From a virus (lineage: Duplodnaviria > Heunggongvirae > Uroviricota > Caudoviricetes), in the IMG/VR virus record IMGVR_UViG_3300032312_001770, positions 64,001 to 128,000 of that record: a stretch of DNA of 64,000 nucleotides. The stretch is one strand, 5' to 3'. The notes under the pieces were generated by a model, which was given only the letters and a program-made list of their open reading frames with translations, was not told the origin of the DNA and searched no databases. Both the position numbers and the translations under genes were made by a program. Position 1 is the first letter of the stretch. Each line of letters begins with the position of its first letter. Shown one piece after another: positions 22,044 to 64,000 of the stretch.

Positions 22044-22418
22044 TTATTTTTTAATATTCAAAATATCTCCTAAAGTTATAGGAGAATGTTCCATTGATTC
22101 TATCTCTAGAATGTGATTAATTCTTTTCTGTCTAAGCATTTCTTTAGAATAAATAGAAGTCATATCTATTAATTTACCAGGAGAATGAGTATGTTGTGTT
22201 ACTCTCATACCTCTTTTACTTATATGTGTTACTGTTTTAGGTTGAAGTTCGTCTGGTAAATATTCATAATCAACAGGCACACATGAATAACAATAACAAT
22301 AACCATCATGATCATACCAATCATCATCATACCAATAACTCCAATAGTAATCATCACTAAGTTCAGCCTTAGTAATTATTCTATCAAGTATTTCTATTTT
22401 ACTTTTTCTCAGTGCCAT
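22044..22418 (-). CDS. Hypothetical protein with an aromatic/acidic, Cys-containing segment
   Basis: YYWSYWYDDDWYDHDGYCYCYSC; RQKRINHIL motif. Confidence 0.55.
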   Translation of the reverse strand: MALRKSKIEILDRIITKAELSDDYYWSYWYDDDWYDHDGYCYCYSCVPVDYEYLPDELQPKTVTHISKRGMRVTQHTHSPGKLIDMTSIYSKEMLRQKRINHILEIESMEHSPITLGDILNIKK

Positions 22419-22827
22419 TTATTAACTCACTTAATCTCCAATCTCTGATGTTGATTTTAAAATCATCAAAAGAATGAGAGTTAGCCATTATATCTATTCT
22501 CGTATTTATTTCTTTTATTAAGTCACTTATTTCCATATCTCTATTTCTACATTGACCATCATAAACACATTCGACTTTATTTTCATCAGAAGATAATACC
22601 CAAACTGTGATGTTTTTGTAAACATCAAACATTTTTTTTGTTCTATGCAAATGTTCTTCAGCAACTTGTCTTGATGAATTTTTAGTATCAACATAAACAG
22701 CAAAAATAGGATTATTCAAATCTAATTCAATCTTTTCTTCTTGTTGATACATCATAGTAATAGGAATATTACTATTGAGTGCCGAAGATAAAGGAGTGGT
22801 AGGATTATTAAAAAAAGGTAAAGGCAT
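22399..22827 (-). CDS. Hypothetical protein
   Basis: 142 aa with C-terminal IRDWRLSELI. Confidence 0.55.
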   Translation of the reverse strand: MPLPFFNNPTTPLSSALNSNIPITMMYQQEEKIELDLNNPIFAVYVDTKNSSRQVAEEHLHRTKKMFDVYKNITVWVLSSDENKVECVYDGQCRNRDMEISDLIKEINTRIDIMANSHSFDDFKINIRDWRLSELINGTEKK

Positions 22828-23861: not shown

Positions 23862-24233
23862 TTATTTTAATATATCCCTAATTTTTTTATCTCTCATATA
23901 TTGAATAATATTATTAGGTGGTTTCTTAAAAGCACCTTTAATAAAACTCAAAAATATTTCTAATTGTAAATCTTTATTATCACCAAATGTTTTCAAACTA
24001 AAACTACCAAAGTTTTTACCAGACATCATATGACTGCTCATTTGTGATAAACTAAGATGTGCTAAGTCATGTTCATCATCTAAACGTATCTTCAATTGAT
24101 CAGCAAAAGCCATAGCATTTTGATTAGGATTACCAATCACATCAGTAGCCATGCTAAAAAAATACGGCTTGGATGACCAAGTTTGAGTAAATCCTAACTC
24201 TTTAATAAATGATATGAATTCTTTCTTTATCAT
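23862..24233 (-). CDS. Hypothetical protein
   Basis: Start at ATG 24233 overlaps the upstream TAA (TAATG); C-terminal MRDKKIRDILK. Confidence 0.55.
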   Translation of the reverse strand: MIKKEFISFIKELGFTQTWSSKPYFFSMATDVIGNPNQNAMAFADQLKIRLDDEHDLAHLSLSQMSSHMMSGKNFGSFSLKTFGDNKDLQLEIFLSFIKGAFKKPPNNIIQYMRDKKIRDILK

Positions 24234-26871: not shown

Positions 26872-27210
26872 TTAGTTTAGTATTTGTTTTAGTTTCTCGT
26901 CTCGTAAATAAGCTTTATAATCTTCTTGTTCAGTTATGAAATATTCTGACATTTCTTTTTCAGTAAAGTAATACCATTTAATTTTCTCAATATGAGGTAA
27001 ATTCCACCAGTCCTTTCTACCAGAAAATGAACCAAAATATTCATCTTCAACACAGAAACCATATCCTGTTTTACCGTTAACCTCTTTATCGGCATTGTAT
27101 TCCAATGGACCACATCCTTTAATAGGATAATGAGAACCGTTTTTAAGTGTTTTGTATTCTTTAACACAAACCAGTCTATCACCCATTTCAAATCTAACAA
27201 ATTTATCCAT
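26872..27210 (-). CDS. Hypothetical protein
   Basis: 112 aa with C-terminal LRDEKLKQILN. Confidence 0.55.
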   Translation of the reverse strand: MDKFVRFEMGDRLVCVKEYKTLKNGSHYPIKGCGPLEYNADKEVNGKTGYGFCVEDEYFGSFSGRKDWWNLPHIEKIKWYYFTEKEMSEYFITEQEDYKAYLRDEKLKQILN

Positions 27211-27424
27211 TGAATATTCGTTTAATTTTTTCTTTTCTCATTTTTATAATGCGAACCTTATCTCTCAACTTAAAAACTTCAGAGTAAACATCTGTTACCA
27301 GTCTTGAGTTTTCACCATAATTAGAGTTAGCAATCATCTTGTAATAAGCTAATTTAGTTTCTAATTCTTTCATCTTTTCTAATTCTTTCATCTTAATCTT
27401 CTCCATGATGGTCAATTTTTTCAA
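27203..27424 (-). CDS. Mini-protein with a PolB motif B-like sequence
   Basis: KMIANSNYG within a helical 73-aa ORF; C-terminal MRKEKIKRIF. Confidence 0.5.
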   Translation of the reverse strand: MKKLTIMEKIKMKELEKMKELETKLAYYKMIANSNYGENSRLVTDVYSEVFKLRDKVRIIKMRKEKIKRIFNG

Positions 27425-38995: not shown

Positions 38996-39424
38996 ATGGA
39001 AAAAGCGTATGTAATTTTAAGAAAAGGATTCGAATATGATGATAGTATCTACAGTGAGTCCGAAGGTGGTAGTCCAAGTCTAATTGTATTTTCTAAAAAA
39101 GATGCTAATAGAAAGGTAGATGAATTAAATGCTAAAGAGTTTAAGCAGTGCTCAATATCAGAATACTCATATGATATGGAGGATATTCTAACAGTAGAAA
39201 TTGATGAATATTACAAATTCAATGAATCTCTTAATCAAAAGTATGGTAAACCAGAACTAAAAAATAAATGGGAGTCTAGTGAGAATAGATTACATCCTAT
39301 GGCTAATGAAGAAGAAACTGAGAAATATATGAAGATGGTCAGTATGAGTTTTTTCGAGGCAGTTGAAACAGATATCGATGTTCAGTCGTATAGAGAAAAA
39401 AAGATAACTGAAATCTTGAACTAA
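38996..39424 (+). CDS. Hypothetical protein
   Basis: 142 aa with C-terminal YREKKITEILN. Confidence 0.55.
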   Translation: MEKAYVILRKGFEYDDSIYSESEGGSPSLIVFSKKDANRKVDELNAKEFKQCSISEYSYDMEDILTVEIDEYYKFNESLNQKYGKPELKNKWESSENRLHPMANEEETEKYMKMVSMSFFEAVETDIDVQSYREKKITEILN

Positions 39425-40581: not shown

Positions 40582-40980
40582 ATGAAAAAATTTACTAAAA
40601 TACTAGAAGAAGTAGAAAACGAAAGATTCTACAAAATAACCGCTCAAGTTGAACTGGTAATACCTTCAGAAAATGAAGGAGAGGCTGGCTATTTAGCAGA
40701 TTCTATTTTAGCATCTATAGAATATGGGTCAGAATACGTTATTGATAATATTGAACAAACTGAAAAGTTAGAAGAGTCTATAATATTTGAATCAAAGTCA
40801 AAAATAAAAACTGAATTAAAAGATAATAATGATTATCAAATGATTTCAGGTATTATTGATATTCTAAAAAAAGTTAAAGATAAAGAAAATAGAATGGAGA
40901 TTGCTAATGATATGGTTTCTCAATTCAAAAAAGAAAAAATCAAATTTGATTATGATAATTTCTTAGATACATTAAAGTAA
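40582..40980 (+). CDS. Putative internal head protein
   Basis: MKKFTKILEE start. Confidence 0.5.
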   Translation: MKKFTKILEEVENERFYKITAQVELVIPSENEGEAGYLADSILASIEYGSEYVIDNIEQTEKLEESIIFESKSKIKTELKDNNDYQMISGIIDILKKVKDKENRMEIANDMVSQFKKEKIKFDYDNFLDTLK

Positions 40981-41022
40981 TCTTAGAAATTAATATATAA
41001 ACTATAAAATTAAACAAATAAT

Positions 41023-41592
41023 ATGAAAAAGTTTTCAGATTTCAAACCAGTTAAAAAGAAGATATTCGAAGCAGAATCAAATCTTCCTTCAAACTATGAA
41101 GATATATCAAAAGAAGAATTACTTAAATTGATGTCAGGTCAAACTAAAAGTGAAGAAAATACAGAAGATCGTGAAGAAGAGAAATCAGAAGAAAATTCTG
41201 AAGCATCTGGTTCTAATGATGTATCAACATTCATTTCTAAGTTATTAGAAAGTAGAGAGATGGCTCAAGTTTATCACTGGACTGTTAAAGGTGATATGGG
41301 TTCTCATGCTGCTCACTTAGCCTTACAAACATATTATGAAGAAGTTATTGAATTTATTGATGACATCGTTGAGATTTATCAAGGTCAATATGGTCTTATC
41401 GAAGGATATGATGTAATTGATACAACAGACTCTAAATCAAAAGATAGATTAGATTATTTTAAAGAAACTGTAGAGTATGTTAAATCAGCTAGAAAATGTA
41501 TTAAAGCTGAAGATACACACATTCACAATATAGTAGATGAGTTAATAGCTTTACAATATAAAACAATTTACAAGTTAACTTACAATAAATAA
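41023..41592 (+). CDS. Ferritin/Dps-like four-helix protein (DUF5856-like)
   Basis: YHW...HxAHLALxxYYE...DDIVExxQG...DE; start MKKFSDF. Confidence 0.7.
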   Translation: MKKFSDFKPVKKKIFEAESNLPSNYEDISKEELLKLMSGQTKSEENTEDREEEKSEENSEASGSNDVSTFISKLLESREMAQVYHWTVKGDMGSHAAHLALQTYYEEVIEFIDDIVEIYQGQYGLIEGYDVIDTTDSKSKDRLDYFKETVEYVKSARKCIKAEDTHIHNIVDELIALQYKTIYKLTYNK

Positions 41593-42144: not shown

Positions 42145-42172
42145 AAAATCCCACTTAATAAGTGGGATTTTT
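42145..42172. terminator. Bidirectional terminator (CCCAC family)
   Basis: aaaatcccactt-aat-aagtgggatttt at a convergent junction. Confidence 0.85.
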
Positions 42173-42418
42173 TATTTCTATAGTTCCGTAATATTTACTA
42201 TTTACCATCTTTTTAGAATACCTACTTGTAATTGATTTACTTGGTGAGAATTCATCTTTAAAATCTAAACCTAAATCAAATATCTTATTAATCTTTCTTT
42301 TTCTACTTACATTTTTAGAACCATATCCAACTATAGTCTGAGCCGTAGTCATAGGTATATAAGGAGCATAAATATAACCTGGTTCTATTAAATTATCAGA
42401 CTTTTTACCTATTAACAT
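42155..42418 (-). CDS. Mini-protein resembling the C-terminus of a T4 gp23-type major capsid protein
   Basis: GYIYAPYIP...FSPSKSITSRYSKKMV..KYYG. Confidence 0.6.
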   Translation of the reverse strand: MLIGKKSDNLIEPGYIYAPYIPMTTAQTIVGYGSKNVSRKRKINKIFDLGLDFKDEFSPSKSITSRYSKKMVNSKYYGTIEIKNPTY

Positions 42419-42545
42419 TAAATAATCTTTTGATTTTATCTTTTCTTATTTTACTTCTAAGAAAATAATTTAAAAAATTAGTTCTTACATAGTCTTCTCG
42501 TCGGTGTTTCCAACCATCTTTACCCCAACCTCTTGCAAAAGACAT
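42405..42545 (-). CDS. 46-aa basic peptide (not in ORF track)
   Basis: MSFARGWGKDGWKHRREDYVRTNFLNYFLRSKIRKDKIKRLFNVNR*. Confidence 0.5.
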   Translation of the reverse strand: MSFARGWGKDGWKHRREDYVRTNFLNYFLRSKIRKDKIKRLFNVNR

Positions 42546-42649
42546 AAATTTTTAATTTTTGTTTTTCTTTTTTGAATCCTATCAAATCTATACAAAGCAT
42601 TTTTGATAGATTCTCTTTTACAATCAGGTATATTTTCCCAAACTGCCAT
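42485..42649 (-). CDS. 54-aa peptide (not in ORF track)
   Basis: MAVWENIPDCKRESIKNALYRFDRIQKRKTKIKNL...*; overlaps the next peptide gene. Confidence 0.4.
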   Translation of the reverse strand: MAVWENIPDCKRESIKNALYRFDRIQKRKTKIKNLCLLQEVGVKMVGNTDEKTM

Positions 42650-42670: not shown

Positions 42671-42988
42671 TTACTTGTTTTCAGTGTACATATATTTTCT
42701 ACCACCATCATTGTAATCCATTAGATTATTGATTACAGTATCAATCTTATCATTACAATCATCAACATCTTTCTTAATTACTTGAAGAGCAGCAATAGAA
42801 TCATCTATTTGGTCATTACCTTTTTTAGAATCACTCTTATAGTTATTAAGTTCATTTAGAAGAGATTCAATATATCTAGACTTGTCTAACATAGTAGCAG
42901 CAAAGTCTTTTAATTGCTCATTGATTTCACTAACTCTCTCCGATGAGATATCTACTTGTTCATCTTCATTGAATCTTTTAATTTTCAT
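42671..42988 (-). CDS. Coiled-coil protein with a capsid-targeting-like N-terminus
   Basis: MKIKRFNEDE start. Confidence 0.55.
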   Translation of the reverse strand: MKIKRFNEDEQVDISSERVSEINEQLKDFAATMLDKSRYIESLLNELNNYKSDSKKGNDQIDDSIAALQVIKKDVDDCNDKIDTVINNLMDYNDGGRKYMYTENK

Positions 42989-43026
42989 AATAATGGTTTG
43001 ATAATTTTAATATATATATTAATATT

Positions 43027-57232: not shown

Positions 57233-58567
57233 TTATTGGTCTATAAATTGGTCATTTTCAAGAGTCAAATAAACAGAGTTCAAACTTAATTTGATTTGCG
57301 ATTTTAAAAAATCACCATCTCGTTGTTTTAACAATTTGAATCTGTAAATATTCTGCCTCTTCATTTCTTCTGTTCTTATTATAGCAAAGAATGTATCAGC
57401 GGTTTCAGCTATTGCCTTAGATTCTGGAACACTTTCTAATGTAATATCAGCTGAGTTCCAAGCATCCTTAGCCACTTGAACACCGGTAATGACCGGAACT
57501 TTATATTTAGCACCTAAAGCTCTTAGAGCCTCTGCTAAAAATTTACCCTTTGTGTAAAGGTTATCAGCGGCAGCAACTTTACCAGCTGTAACAAGAGTGA
57601 TATAATCAACAATAACTAAGTCAATTTTAACATCCTTTTTTTCTTTTAGTTTTTGAATGTAATTATCAAAGTCATTCACTGTTGCTGTACCAGCCGCCCA
57701 GAATTTAGTATAAATCTTACCAACTTTTCTTTCAAATAAGTCATCACCACTACTATCTGGTTTACTAAGATTTTGAATTTTCTTTCTAATCATTTCAGTG
57801 TCTTTTGACATGACATCATAATCATTAATCGGAATTCTTAAACGCATAGCACCAATTCTCTTCATAACTTTTCTTTCACTCATTTCAAGTGTTATATAAA
57901 GAACATTATTACCCATATCTGCTGCCTTAAAAGCAAAATTTTGCATCCATAATGACTTACCATTATTAGTTTCAGCCATAACAACATTTAAAGTAGAAAT
58001 ATCCCAACCACCACCTAACATATGGTCAATAGATTCAAATCCACACTTTACTTTAAATTTAGAAGAGTCTTGAACGTGATTTTCAGGATCATCAAAATCG
58101 GAACCCATATCATCATCTTGTACGAAATTGGTAGATGACATCTCATCAACAATACTTCTAATTCTATCAGCGGCTTCAACAGCCTTTTCAAAGTCTGAAA
58201 TAGAATCAAGGTTTCTTGTTTCGTCAATAATATCAACTGTGCCTGTTTTCAAACGATTGGATAGTATCCAAGCATTGAACTTAGGCTCAATAAAATTCTT
58301 TTCATCATACTCTTTAAGATCAACTTGTAGAATAGATTTAAGAATGTCTTTAGTGATTATACCTTCTTTATCTTCAAGAGAAACCATATCCAAAATCTGA
58401 CGAGGTGTCGGAGTTTGAGTATCATTACCTTTAATCATATACTCACGAATAACACCATATACAAATTGGATTTCAGAGTTTCTGAAAAAATAAGGTTTTA
58501 CAATATCAAAGTACTTCTTGTTCTTGAGAATAAAATTAAAGAATACTTTTTCTAGTTGGGGAGTCAT
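57233..58567 (-). CDS. dnaB: Replicative DnaB/T4 gp41-like helicase
   Basis: AETNNGKS, YITLEM, VIVDYI, GVQV, SKAIAETAD and KQRDG motifs. Confidence 0.92.
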   Translation of the reverse strand: MTPQLEKVFFNFILKNKKYFDIVKPYFFRNSEIQFVYGVIREYMIKGNDTQTPTPRQILDMVSLEDKEGIITKDILKSILQVDLKEYDEKNFIEPKFNAWILSNRLKTGTVDIIDETRNLDSISDFEKAVEAADRIRSIVDEMSSTNFVQDDDMGSDFDDPENHVQDSSKFKVKCGFESIDHMLGGGWDISTLNVVMAETNNGKSLWMQNFAFKAADMGNNVLYITLEMSERKVMKRIGAMRLRIPINDYDVMSKDTEMIRKKIQNLSKPDSSGDDLFERKVGKIYTKFWAAGTATVNDFDNYIQKLKEKKDVKIDLVIVDYITLVTAGKVAAADNLYTKGKFLAEALRALGAKYKVPVITGVQVAKDAWNSADITLESVPESKAIAETADTFFAIIRTEEMKRQNIYRFKLLKQRDGDFLKSQIKLSLNSVYLTLENDQFIDQ

Positions 58568-58624
58568 TTAACCATTTCATTTTTATATTATATGAAATGA
58601 ATGAACTAAGTTTAAGTTTTAAAC

Positions 58625-59413
58625 TTATTGCTCCTTGATCAAATCACCTGGCTGATTCTTCTCTGAATCACGGAATGTAGCAAACTTTTGAATAACTGGC
58701 GTTTCTATATCATCCAAAACTTCTTTTTGATTAATAGTGAATTTACTTTTTAATCTACTAATAATTTCAACAATTCCATGCTTAGTAATAATAGTACCGA
58801 TACCAACAGCTAATCCTAAGAAGTTTTGAGGAAGAGTTTCTAAATTTAACTCATACTTGTCAATTATAGCCATAACACCATTTAACAAAGGAATTAAAAG
58901 AGATGTATAAGCAAACATATCAATAACACCACCTATAACAGCTCCAATATGTTTACCAATAATTGAAAAAATGTTTTTAATTGACTGAAGACCTTTTATT
59001 AACTTTTTAACTATACCATTACCAAAACCCCTCATCTTTAATTCTTCTAACATAGATTTAGAATCTTTTGTTAAACTTTCTTCCTCTTCAACAGATTTAC
59101 ATTTCTTTTCTTCAAGATATGTTATAGCAACAGAAGAAAGTGTAAGCAAGACAACAGATTCAGTATTAAGATTAAATGAATCTATATTCATATTTTTCAT
59201 CAATCCATAAACAACAGGATAAAGAGCGCCAATACCAGCACCAAATGTAGAAACTAAACCAACGTTTAGTTTTAAATCAGAAATAACTTTTTTAGCCACT
59301 CTTTTATAAGAATCTCCACCATCAGATTCTACAATCATCTTATCAAATGAATTTAAGAATTCATTTACCATTTCATTTTGTAAGTTATAATCGTTAAATC
59401 TTTTAATGTTCAT
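58625..59413 (-). CDS. Putative head-packaged protein with hydrophobic Gly-rich helices
   Basis: MNIKRFNDY start; FGAGIGALYPVV, IGAVIGGVI and LGLAVGIGTII segments. Confidence 0.55.
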   Translation of the reverse strand: MNIKRFNDYNLQNEMVNEFLNSFDKMIVESDGGDSYKRVAKKVISDLKLNVGLVSTFGAGIGALYPVVYGLMKNMNIDSFNLNTESVVLLTLSSVAITYLEEKKCKSVEEEESLTKDSKSMLEELKMRGFGNGIVKKLIKGLQSIKNIFSIIGKHIGAVIGGVIDMFAYTSLLIPLLNGVMAIIDKYELNLETLPQNFLGLAVGIGTIITKHGIVEIISRLKSKFTINQKEVLDDIETPVIQKFATFRDSEKNQPGDLIKEQ

Positions 59414-62063: not shown

Positions 62064-62700
62064 AAACTACAATGAATTTGCAAGCGAGAATGTACTTTAC
62101 ATTTTTGACTTTGATGATACGCTTGTGAATTCACCAAGCTTTGATGAACTAGCAATTAATTATCTAGAGGAAGATATAACAATCAAAGACTTATTAAATC
62201 AATCTATAAATAGGGTTGGTGTCACATTAGACGACTTGAAATGGCAGGATGGTAGAATATATGTACTTGATCCAAATAAAGAGCTTAAAGAGTTCGGTAA
62301 CTGGGTTAGAAAAGGAGATAGATTATATATGTTTACTCCAAATGCTTTTCACTTATCAGATTTAAGTTTACCAAGTACATTAAAAGAACTTTCACAGTTA
62401 TATAAATCAGTCGAGAATAAATGTATAGTAACAGCTAGAGAAGAATCTCTAAGAAATAAAATAACTAAAACATTATTGGATTTAGGATTAGAACTACCTA
62501 AATATGGCTTACATATGGCACCAGTAGGAACTAAAAATTCTGGTCATTGGAAAGGCGAAAGAATAGTTGAAATAATAAATGAAACAGGATTTCAAAAAGC
62601 TATATTCTATGACGATAATATTAAGTACATTAAAAGAGCCACTAAAGTAGTTAAAGAAAAGCTACCAAATTTAGACTTTAAAACATTTAAAGTTTTATAA
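62047..62700 (+). CDS. HAD-superfamily phosphatase with a capsid-targeting-like N-terminus
   Basis: FDFDDTL, VTAR, K, FYDD; start MKIKNYNEFASE. Confidence 0.8.
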   Translation: MNMKIKNYNEFASENVLYIFDFDDTLVNSPSFDELAINYLEEDITIKDLLNQSINRVGVTLDDLKWQDGRIYVLDPNKELKEFGNWVRKGDRLYMFTPNAFHLSDLSLPSTLKELSQLYKSVENKCIVTAREESLRNKITKTLLDLGLELPKYGLHMAPVGTKNSGHWKGERIVEIINETGFQKAIFYDDNIKYIKRATKVVKEKLPNLDFKTFKVL

Positions 62701-64000
62701 CTCTGCTTCTAGCTGTTTGATTTCATCAAGAACTTTTTTAAGTTCTTCTTTCTTATCCATCATTACTTTTTTAGCTTTCTTTCTATCAGCATAGACATCT
62801 TCAAGCATATTCAAAGTTGGCGATATTCTTTTTTCAAATACAACACCATTGATACAAAGAACGTGTTTATCAGGATCAATAGGTCTACCATTTGTACACT
62901 TAGATTTATCTTTTTCATCTTGAAGACCAATGAATGTTTCAGGAGCAATAAAGAACTGTCTTTGAGTTGTTGGATAAAGCGAAGCAAAGTCATAAGTAAC
63001 ACACCACTGATTCATACCAACCACAGGATCTTTTACCCAACCACCAGCAATTGTAGAATCAGCATCACCTTTTTCATCTCGAAAAAGTACAATATTATCC
63101 ATCTTACGGAATCTATTTCTTAAAACACCTTCCGTAATAGCCAAAGAGCCTAACGCATTGTTCATTTGAGAAACAACGTCAATAATTCTAATTTGAGCTA
63201 ATGATGAAATCGCATAAATAATTGAGATATAGTTACGAGCTTCATGAATCTTTTGCACTAGAACCGAATCGACCGCGTTATAATACATAAATGTTTCAAA
63301 GTCGTCTTCATATAATTTCTGTAAAGATCCATTGTACTTAATCTTTTCAACACCAACAAGTTTATTAGCAACAAAGTCTAATGATGATGATTCTTTTACC
63401 TTAATAGAAGTATCACAGATTTCATAAAGTTGCATGTAATCAAAAATCATTCTATGTGCTGGAACTTCAAATTCAGTTGACCAAATCTTATTCATTCTTT
63501 TTGTTAAAGATGAGACAGCAGGATCGATTCTGTATTCTTTACCATTAGCCCATTTAGAAATCTTTCTAGAACGATTTACTAAATACAACCAGTCATATTG
63601 TAAAAAGTTCCAACCAGTAAGAATAGGCATCTTGGGAATCATCTTATAGAAGAAAGCATAAAGCATATCAAACTCATCATCATACTGAATATATTTGAAT
63701 TTGTATTCTGTACCGAACTTCTTAAAATACTTATTAGTATTATTGATAATTCTTTCTTGCATATCTTCAGGCATTTCTTTCAAACCCAAAAGAATAATTT
63801 TATCATCATAAACAATAGAGATAGAAAGAACTTGAGTTGAAGCACCTTCTTTTGTTACATTACCATCTTGGTCTTTAATATCAGCCGCTTCAGGAAAACC
63901 ATCAACGATTTCCGTTTCAATATCTATAAAGTAAATCTTAGGTAGATTAAATTCAAAGATTTCATTTTTTTCTGATTCGGGCAAACTGTCTAAGAACTCA
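62695..64000 (-). CDS. polB: Family B DNA polymerase, N-terminal subunit (exonuclease + motif A) of a split enzyme; 5' end outside the window
   Basis: ExoI IDIET, ExoII GWNFLQYD, ExoIII YNAVD, motif A YDFASLYP; stop follows the first finger helix. The frame is open to the window edge. Confidence 0.9.
   Translation of the reverse strand, partial: EFLDSLPESEKNEIFEFNLPKIYFIDIETEIVDGFPEAADIKDQDGNVTKEGASTQVLSISIVYDDKIILLGLKEMPEDMQERIINNTNKYFKKFGTEYKFKYIQYDDEFDMLYAFFYKMIPKMPILTGWNFLQYDWLYLVNRSRKISKWANGKEYRIDPAVSSLTKRMNKIWSTEFEVPAHRMIFDYMQLYEICDTSIKVKESSSLDFVANKLVGVEKIKYNGSLQKLYEDDFETFMYYNAVDSVLVQKIHEARNYISIIYAISSLAQIRIIDVVSQMNNALGSLAITEGVLRNRFRKMDNIVLFRDEKGDADSTIAGGWVKDPVVGMNQWCVTYDFASLYPTTQRQFFIAPETFIGLQDEKDKSKCTNGRPIDPDKHVLCINGVVFEKRISPTLNMLEDVYADRKKAKKVMMDKKEELKKVLDEIKQLEAEL

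Follow-up and report, generated by a model that had tools for sequence, protein, structure and literature searches.

A small tagged fragment of a phage capsid protein, and a plausible role for it as an immune decoy

The DNA analysed here, called the window below, is a stretch of 64,000 bases (bases 64001-128000) from a 134.6-kb viral record with a G+C content of about 28%. CheckV places the record at about 30% completeness, which makes it part of a genome that measures several hundred kilobases. The subject of this report is an 87-codon mini-gene at the end of a short minus-strand operon. Three of the four genes in this operon encode a short peptide motif, the tag, which also occurs on many other proteins of the same phage. 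The locus contains the following features:

43009-43020, no strand assigned: a copy of AATATATA, readable on both strands; candidate promoter
42671-42988, minus strand: gene for a 105-residue coiled-coil-like protein, first of the minus-strand unit (ORF list)
42485-42649, minus strand: micro-ORF of 54 residues with a weaker, internal tag (ORF list; tag PSSM score 14)
42405-42545, minus strand: micro-ORF of 46 residues with a tag 4 residues before the stop codon (ORF list; tag PSSM score 27)
42155-42418, minus strand: 87-codon mini-gene, a capsid-tail mimic with an internal tag (stop codon at 42155-42157)
42145-42171, no strand assigned: perfect hairpin with 13-base arms and T runs on both sides; bidirectional terminator

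The ORFs of 54, 46, and 87 residues occupy three overlapping minus-strand frames, and the stop region of the 46-residue ORF overlaps the start of the 87-codon gene. The mini-gene is the last of four genes between a motif-bearing gap and a bidirectional terminator, and these boundaries make the three micro-ORFs the distal part of one small transcription unit. Upstream, the copy of AATATATA sits in a 38-base divergent gap before the 105-residue gene. In G001, a near-complete relative (476 kb, 97% complete), AATATATA is the commonest upstream motif: it precedes start codons by about 20-30 bases in 95 of the 285 upstream regions, among them those of the capsid gene and the orthologous operon. This element is probably the main promoter element of the phage. 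Downstream, the hairpin overlaps the last codons of the mini-gene and ends the operon; convergent plus-strand genes end at the hairpin too. One of these, two genes before the common terminator (41023-41592, plus strand), encodes a 189-residue DUF5856 protein that matches a PHROG named starvation-inducible (Dps-like) regulator. A weak Rfam match to Trp_leader is the hairpin itself; Rfam identified no other RNA family, introns included, between 41000 and 44000. Nor was an endonuclease gene adjoining the mini-gene locus found in the ORF list or with Pfam or PHROGs.

The product of the mini-gene consists of two capsid-protein segments separated by an insert that carries the tag. The first-pass annotation had recognised both C-terminal motif blocks of a gp23-type capsid protein in the 87-residue ORF, and Pfam, tblastn, and profile alignment agree on this assignment. 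The parts of the protein are encoded as follows:

42329-42418, minus strand: block 1 (residues 1-30), the capsid segment at GYxYAPYxP, corresponding to T4 gp23 residues ~437-462
42260-42328, minus strand: 23-residue insert, absent from capsid proteins
42278-42307, minus strand: core tag (residues 38-47), inside the 23-residue insert
42158-42259, minus strand: block 2 (residues 54-87), the capsid FxPxxxxxSRY...YYG segment plus the last strand

The Pfam Gp23 profile (PF07068) aligns residues 1-34 with profile positions 303-333 (E 6e-4), at a score of 19.8 bits that lies below the curated cut-off of 24.4 bits. In a tblastn search of 50,697 phage records, all matches were 3' ends of annotated major capsid genes (best E 7e-6). 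In these matches, about 60 residues of the subject account for 93-99% of the query, which leaves the query with about 22 extra residues. A family profile built from 110 members aligns with T4-like capsid proteins in two separate pieces, positions 1-30 and 54-83, which fall on consecutive C-terminal segments; the second piece matches the last 30 residues of the capsid proteins. Because profile positions 31-53 are skipped in these alignments, the tag-bearing stretch is an insertion, and the placement of the tag between the two blocks, also proposed earlier, stands. Relative to T4 gp23, the mini-protein starts at the conserved strand before GYxYAPYxP (T4 ~437) and spans the FxPxxGxxTRY block to the last strand, without the T4-specific C-terminal insertion. 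T4 gp24 also has extra residues at the loop that holds the insert.

A complete Gp23 protein comprises an N-arm, an E-loop, a spine helix, and the A- and P-domains, over about 376 profile positions. The mini-protein contains the conserved C-terminal sequence blocks, and covers only the C-terminal end of the profile, from about position 303. Since it falls short of both the cut-off and this complement of domains, it is not a capsid protein of the Gp23 family. AlphaFold2, given a 51-sequence alignment, predicts a single helix, residues 35-47, which corresponds to the tag (block pLDDT ~85); the rest of the model is low-confidence coil (mean pLDDT 64). By themselves, the two capsid blocks are predicted to have no fold. 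A sequence search of solved structures with the mini-protein yielded no capsid match. The model of a full-length T4-like capsid relative (pLDDT 52) was unusable for mapping the blocks, so their assignment to capsid strands is one that we take from general knowledge of the fold.

The family is large. A word-indexed protein search returned 305 homologous clusters at 90% identity; among the matches listed (120 of the 305 clusters), lengths range from 79 to 123 residues and identities from 72 to 91%. An exhaustive search of 50%-identity representatives brought in about 40-60 more small proteins built alike, the most distant at about 35-40% identity. The six relatives obtained as DNA each have an intact reading frame. 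Among these six (pairwise dS at most 0.75), omega ranges from 0.20 to 0.65, and the pooled pN/pS for the whole gene is 0.45. By segment, the values are 0.47 and 0.52 for the capsid blocks and 0.32 for the insert with its tag. The near-invariant residues are capsid hallmarks (G14, Y15, P19, Y20, R66, Y67, and Y77) together with R39 of the tag. The first-pass annotation had named dN/dS as a check for neutral decay of the fragment; the pooled ratio and the preserved frames indicate purifying selection rather than such decay. A pseudogene or decaying fragment was rejected on the same grounds, and on the count of 305 clusters. Judged by its sequence record, the 87-codon ORF is a real, selected small protein that is probably translated separately.

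Relatives differ in how their parts are arranged. In P0160, P0178, and P0256, block 2 precedes block 1 and the tag is at the very C-terminus; P0143 and P0146 contain two tags each; and P0138 has an additional tagged segment fused in front. Some relatives have the loop without a tag. The versions with swapped blocks or a C-terminal tag suggest a modular "bait plus handle" design. With both modules retained and their order free, a tethered bait is to be expected rather than a structural part.

The two peptides encoded directly upstream, first noticed for their tags, are genuine ORFs with the motif. The 46- and 54-residue ORFs are both kept in two relatives (G001 and L009) and merged in a third: in L006 (2892-3014) they have collapsed to one 40-residue ORF through a tag-to-tag deletion that fused the 54-residue ORF to the tail of the 46-residue ORF. 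This deletion between tag-coding stretches implies that the tags act as recombination joints between cassettes. The N-terminus and tag of the 46-residue ORF are conserved in G001 and L009, and this ORF is absent from L006, L007, L010, and L011. Other relatives have different upstream tagged peptides, or none. From this variation, the capsid mini-gene is the member that stays constant, while the two peptides upstream are cassettes that can be exchanged. By Pfam, the upstream ORFs have no relation to capsid proteins, and no parent protein for the 46- and 54-residue peptides was found among Pfam, PHROGs, longer proteins, or the ESM Atlas. The 105-residue gene, for which Pfam gives only weak coiled-coil-type matches, precedes the micro-ORFs also in L006, L008, and L009.

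Could the mini-gene be a functionless by-product, that is, a scrap of a foreign capsid gene brought in through homing-endonuclease activity or illegitimate recombination, and open by chance or linkage? Homing endonucleases and inteins target conserved sites of the kind mimicked here; HNH-like and T5orf172-like ORFs, recognised by eye, adjoin two sister fragments; and the L006 deletion demonstrates that tag-coding repeats do recombine. However, the frame is intact over hundreds of clusters as well as in the DNA relatives, pN/pS is below one with hallmark residues nearly invariant, and elsewhere in the family the two blocks return in swapped order, again with a tag. Moreover, the locus is without an adjoining endonuclease gene, terminal repeats, or target duplications. 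We therefore consider a by-product improbable.

A different objection is that the ORF might be the last exon of a split capsid gene, its parts united by an intron, by trans-splicing, or by joining at the protein level. The record at hand has no full capsid gene; it has one N-terminal and one C-terminal Gp23 fragment, 48 kb apart. Yet G001 encodes an uninterrupted 564-residue capsid protein besides its own copy of the mini-gene, which rules out a split capsid gene. The mini-gene also has its own start codon and matches the G001 capsid gene poorly, and the lack of an intron family around the locus and of capsid likeness in the upstream ORFs speaks against splicing as well. Virtually no probability remains for this reading.

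What, then, is the tag? Its occurrences were searched with a matrix derived from 16 coordinates and then with the pattern [RK]xx[KRN][IL]xx[IL][FLIY]; the tag of the mini-gene has a PSSM score of 28.4. Of the 164 genes of this record, 13 encode the tag within the last 22 residues of the protein; in G001, 61 of 663 genes do so. The tag is thus a C-terminal feature of about 8-9% of the proteome in this phage and in its 476-kb relative. Shuffled proteins contain the motif at 0.3-1.2%, and the per-residue rate is about 20-fold higher in protein tails than in protein bodies. In G001, 0-2 residues separate the tag from the stop in 42 of the 61 cases. The tag of the mini-protein, however, ends 40 residues before the stop, and that of a sheath-like mini-protein 24 residues before it. 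Whatever reads the tag cannot need a free carboxylate, given the internal position in the mini-protein. A C-terminal degron of the ssrA type was rejected because the tag is internal in these two proteins.

Two subtypes are apparent. The first, strongly basic and ending in Phe, is found on nearly all fragment-bearing mini-proteins. The second, RDxKIxxIL, is found on about 45 somewhat larger ORFans. Within the window, the ORFs at 22399-22827, 23862-24233, 26872-27210, and 38996-39424 (112-142 residues) end in a tag of the RDxKIxxIL type; a family search with the last of these gave no recognisable match. No function was recognised among ten of the larger tagged proteins examined. A membrane-targeting amphipathic helix of the MinD type would call for a high hydrophobic moment in the tags. 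That of the mini-protein tag is 0.73, the highest in the protein, whereas the 61 tags of G001 average 0.29, equal to random 11-mers.

A PIP-box or phage clamp-binding tail was also considered and provisionally set aside on the replication proteins: the NAD ligase, the DnaB-like helicase, and the N-terminal part of the family B DNA polymerase (PolB) are not among the tagged genes, and the remainder of PolB was not located. As a separate observation, PolB itself looks split. An ORF in the window (62695-63984, minus strand) reaches only through the exonuclease domain and one third of the polymerase profile, the first; in G001 the PolB profile match is confined to positions 18-177, with the remaining enzyme likewise not located.

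Several features bear on whether the tag is selected as peptide or as nucleic acid. Codon use in the 61 G001 tags equals the genome-wide pattern for K, R, L, F, N, and D, and differs slightly for Ile; arginine is encoded by AGA, CGT, and CGA, and leucine by TTA, CTA, CTT, and TTG. Nothing is conserved downstream of the tags. With background codons and unconserved downstream sequence, selection acts on the tag peptide. An in-frame mobile repeat of the RPE or MITE type was rejected: only the tag-coding stretches repeat, the flanks are without repeats, and codon use is that of the background. Around the insert, no terminal repeats, inverted or direct flanking repeats, or target duplications were found. 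The alternative would be that gene ends bear a signal in the nucleic acid (promoter, translation-coupling site, or mobile in-frame element) to which the peptide is incidental. The DNA that encodes the tag is rich in A, the next start codon often follows closely, and pS in the tag is somewhat low at 0.235. These points are outweighed by freely varying synonymous codons at background frequencies, by unconserved downstream sequence free of flanking repeats, and by the mini-gene itself, whose tag lies 40 codons from the stop and forms the only confidently predicted helix. A nucleic-acid signal is accordingly very unlikely.

The mini-gene is one of a class, defined as small ORFs that combine a fragment of a core protein with a [RK]xx[KRN][IL]xx[IL][FL] helix; the mini-gene combines all of these. 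The first-pass annotation had envisaged such a class and a survey of related genomes for it. In G001 there are at least four tagged capsid fragments, which represent different parts of Gp23: profile positions 132-172, 162-194, 222-260, and 302-342. Together they cover 28% of a capsid protein, yet 57% of its strongly conserved columns. G001 also contains an untagged N-terminal capsid fragment and a divergent 258-residue paralogue. The idea of a class of tagged mimics thus holds insofar as tagged pieces of core proteins exist, but not insofar as mimicry means a close copy of the cognate capsid protein. When all tagged mini-proteins were compared with the phage's own proteome, only noise-level matches appeared.

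Beyond the capsid protein, likenesses seen by eye in other tagged mini-proteins are to the sheath N-terminus, PolB motif B, the terminase Walker A motif, and the DnaB Walker B motif; none of the PolB-, sheath-, terminase-, or helicase-like mini-proteins has Pfam support. The PolB-like example had been reported previously:

27203-27406, minus strand: 67-residue tagged peptide with a PolB motif-B-like KxxxNSxYG, recognised by eye; no Pfam match

This peptide does end in the tag, and it has an orthologue in G001 (127466-127636); its polymerase likeness is by eye and is not matched by Pfam.

Further examples lie outside the window. At G000 40897-41248 (minus strand), two adjacent tagged mini-proteins have, by eye, a terminase-type Walker A-like and a DnaB-type Walker B-like motif; their G001 orthologues have no Pfam match. 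At G000 58447-58932 (minus strand; L002 1474-1959), an untagged 161-residue ORF is a gp23-type N-terminal copy, resembling the Gol region, whose conserved motif is interrupted by about 48 inserted residues. It is followed by an 81-residue sheath-like tagged mini-protein and then by a 111-residue ORF that looks, by eye, like T5orf172/GIY-YIG.

Similarity of the mini-protein to its cognate capsid protein was a point that the first-pass annotation had named for checking. A capsid protein is present in two of the relatives, G001 and G004; matched to these two proteins, the family profile reaches 8.5-8.8 bits, compared with 32-56 bits for classical T4-like capsid proteins, a set chosen by likeness to the query, and 5 bits for T4 gp23 itself. 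Similarity to the lineage's own capsid protein is therefore weak, with no close copy. The three other tagged capsid fragments of G001 behave alike, with 17-24 bits on T4-like capsid proteins and 2-8 bits on the own capsid protein. Of 27 strongly conserved columns, 18 are matched by the mini-protein of the window, 17 by T4 gp23, and 12 by the lineage's own capsid protein. In these columns the bait is thus no less canonical than T4 gp23 and surpasses the own capsid protein, as would suit a high-affinity decoy. The safe statement, as far as sequence comparison goes, is that the bait is consensus-like and not a copy of the cognate capsid protein. A consensus-like bait fits each of three ideas: a high-affinity decoy, a weapon against classical T4-like phages, or a retained ancestral sequence.

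Under the second of these ideas, a weapon against competing phages, the mini-protein would cap or mis-pair the capsid subunits of co-infecting T4-like phages, while the divergent capsid protein of its own phage would be spared. The contrast in bit scores, for the mini-protein and for the three other G001 fragments, is what such a weapon would show, and a segment whose role is to pair with a partner sheet would be expected to be unfolded alone, as the strands are predicted to be. Against it, the own capsid protein is evenly divergent, matching 33% of the conserved columns inside the mimicked blocks and 30% outside, and so gives no sign of the block-specific escape from self-poisoning that a weapon might call for. 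Fragments with nucleotide-binding motifs would make unlikely assembly poisons, and the foreign capsid proteins in the comparison were selected for their likeness to the query. Finally, G008, a huge phage (361 kb) that has a classical T4-like capsid protein, also carries a block-1 mini-protein: a 74-residue ORF (77523-77747; L120 1024-1248) in which the block-1 capsid motif is followed by a Trp-rich tail, possibly the form that bait plus tag takes in another clade. A weapon is the strongest of the alternatives, although we regard it as unlikely.

Some of the same evidence bears on a role in the virion or its assembly. Here the tag would be a cargo-loading or scaffold-type docking helix, comparable to encapsulin cargo peptides, the C-terminus of the P22 scaffold, or the T4 capsid targeting sequence, and the capsid-like strands would insert at special positions in the phage's own shell, or the peptide would be delivered with the DNA. 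That about 9% of the proteins have a short helical label is reminiscent of a loading signal, and the operon has its upstream motif in common with the capsid gene of G001. One difficulty is that the strands resemble the own capsid protein poorly; another is a free module order, which is ill-suited to a fixed structural role; the protein encoded upstream of the capsid gene, like other neighbours, does not end in the tag. A virion role seems to us rather improbable, if a little less so than the by-product.

The reading favoured here, tentatively, is that the mini-protein is a tethered mimic that captures whatever reads the conserved segment of capsid proteins, a host factor or sensor being the likeliest candidate, while its helix docks on a shared hub. 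As to binding, the identity of the target, and the consequence, we infer the following sequence of events. The two most C-terminal conserved segments of a consensus T4-type major capsid protein would serve as bait, and a basic helix of 10-13 residues, in two subtypes, as handle. The capsid-derived strands would occupy the reader that recognises this segment in not-yet-assembled capsid protein; this reader would most likely be a host factor or a defence sensor of conserved linear capsid motifs. The helix would then dock the complex on a partner common to the other tagged proteins, and because of this docking the reader would be captured or diverted rather than triggered. The first-pass proposal of an immune decoy is, in this form, a plausible candidate function.

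Support for the tethered mimic comes from several directions: the more than 300 clusters, the frame kept in all six DNA relatives, and the near-invariant hallmark residues; the modular design, with free block order and both modules kept; the tag as a peptide label that forms the only confident helix in the model; membership in a class that coexists in G001 with a full capsid gene; and placement in a four-gene unit between a promoter-motif gap and a terminator, which speaks for expression. Other observations weigh against it. Ligand-activated sensors are usually switched on by binding, so a decoy needs an extra neutralising step, postulated here for the handle. The weak likeness to the own capsid protein (8.5 bits) means that a sensor of that protein may not be the target. 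Constraint is only moderate, at a pN/pS of 0.45; the larger tagged proteins have no known function that points to the role of the tag; and the PolB, terminase, helicase, and sheath likenesses consist of short motifs seen by eye. Behind the tethered mimic, the alternatives rank in this order: phage weapon, virion role, by-product, nucleic-acid signal, and split exon.

A broader proposal would extend the tethered mimic to the whole class. The tagged mini-proteins might form a modular capture system: a library of tiny proteins that present conserved capsid, sheath, packaging, and replication motifs on one hub-plugging helix, and that seize and neutralise host sensors or proteins of rival phages. 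This extension is speculative, and we hold it less probable than the tethered mimic itself. If it is true, this would be a new kind of counter-defence, acting at the protein level through bait and handle.

If the bait-and-handle arrangement is real, large phages hold a compact, evolvable display of the motifs that are read by defences or rivals; the fragments would point to features of capsid, sheath, terminase, and polymerase that are being read in nature, and the tag would be a new address code over about a tenth of a megaphage proteome. Whatever its function, a widespread, selected family of capsid-tail proteins of about 85 residues lies unannotated in hundreds of metagenomic phage genomes.

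Comparison with known systems begins with the C-terminus of the gp23-family capsid proteins (PF07068; T4 gp23 ~437-479 plus the last strand), which has the same two blocks in the same order and the same hallmark G-Y, P-Y, R-Y, and Y-G residues. Unlike these proteins, the mini-protein represents about 64 of more than 500 residues, without N-arm, E-loop, spine helix, or A-domain; it has the 23-residue helix-bearing insert at the inter-block loop, and it is predicted to be unfolded alone.

The Gol peptide, which lies near the N-terminus of T4 gp23, triggers exclusion through Lit and EF-Tu. This is a precedent for a short linear stretch of a T4-type capsid protein being what a host defence reads. 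The difference is that Gol is N-terminal and triggers a defence, whereas the mini-protein comprises C-terminal segments and is proposed to block one. We know of no Lit-like partner for the mini-protein.

Short docking labels include the T4 capsid targeting sequence, encapsulin cargo-loading peptides, the C-terminal helix of the P22 scaffold, the PIP-box, and phage clamp-binding tails. Like these address peptides, the tag is a short label that could dock unrelated proteins on one partner, and its hydrophobic spacing (h-x-x-h-h with basic flanks) is like that of a PIP-type plug. Unlike them, it is present on about 9% of a proteome, mostly on ORFans, and also occurs within a loop. Rickettsia palindromic elements are in-frame insertions in protein genes. 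The resemblance is that a short repeat adds a peptide inside conserved proteins in an AT-rich genome; the tag differs in being without a palindrome, a flanking repeat, or conservation at the DNA level beyond its codons.

In the literature on tagged capsid fragments, capsid mimics, and C-terminal address tags in large phages, nothing was found beyond one analogy, from Bodo saltans virus, and the tagged core-protein-fragment mini-proteins of this megaphage lineage correspond to no described family that we could find. Bodo saltans virus encodes ankyrin-repeat proteins that contain fragments of essential genes, for which the authors proposed a decoy role (Deeg et al. 2018, PMC5871332). The likeness is one of design only: pieces of essential proteins on one common module, in many paralogous genes (PMC5871332). 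That virus is a eukaryotic giant virus, and its module is a large ankyrin domain, not a 10-residue helix; its fragments come from catalytic domains, and there, too, the decoy role is a proposal (PMC5871332).
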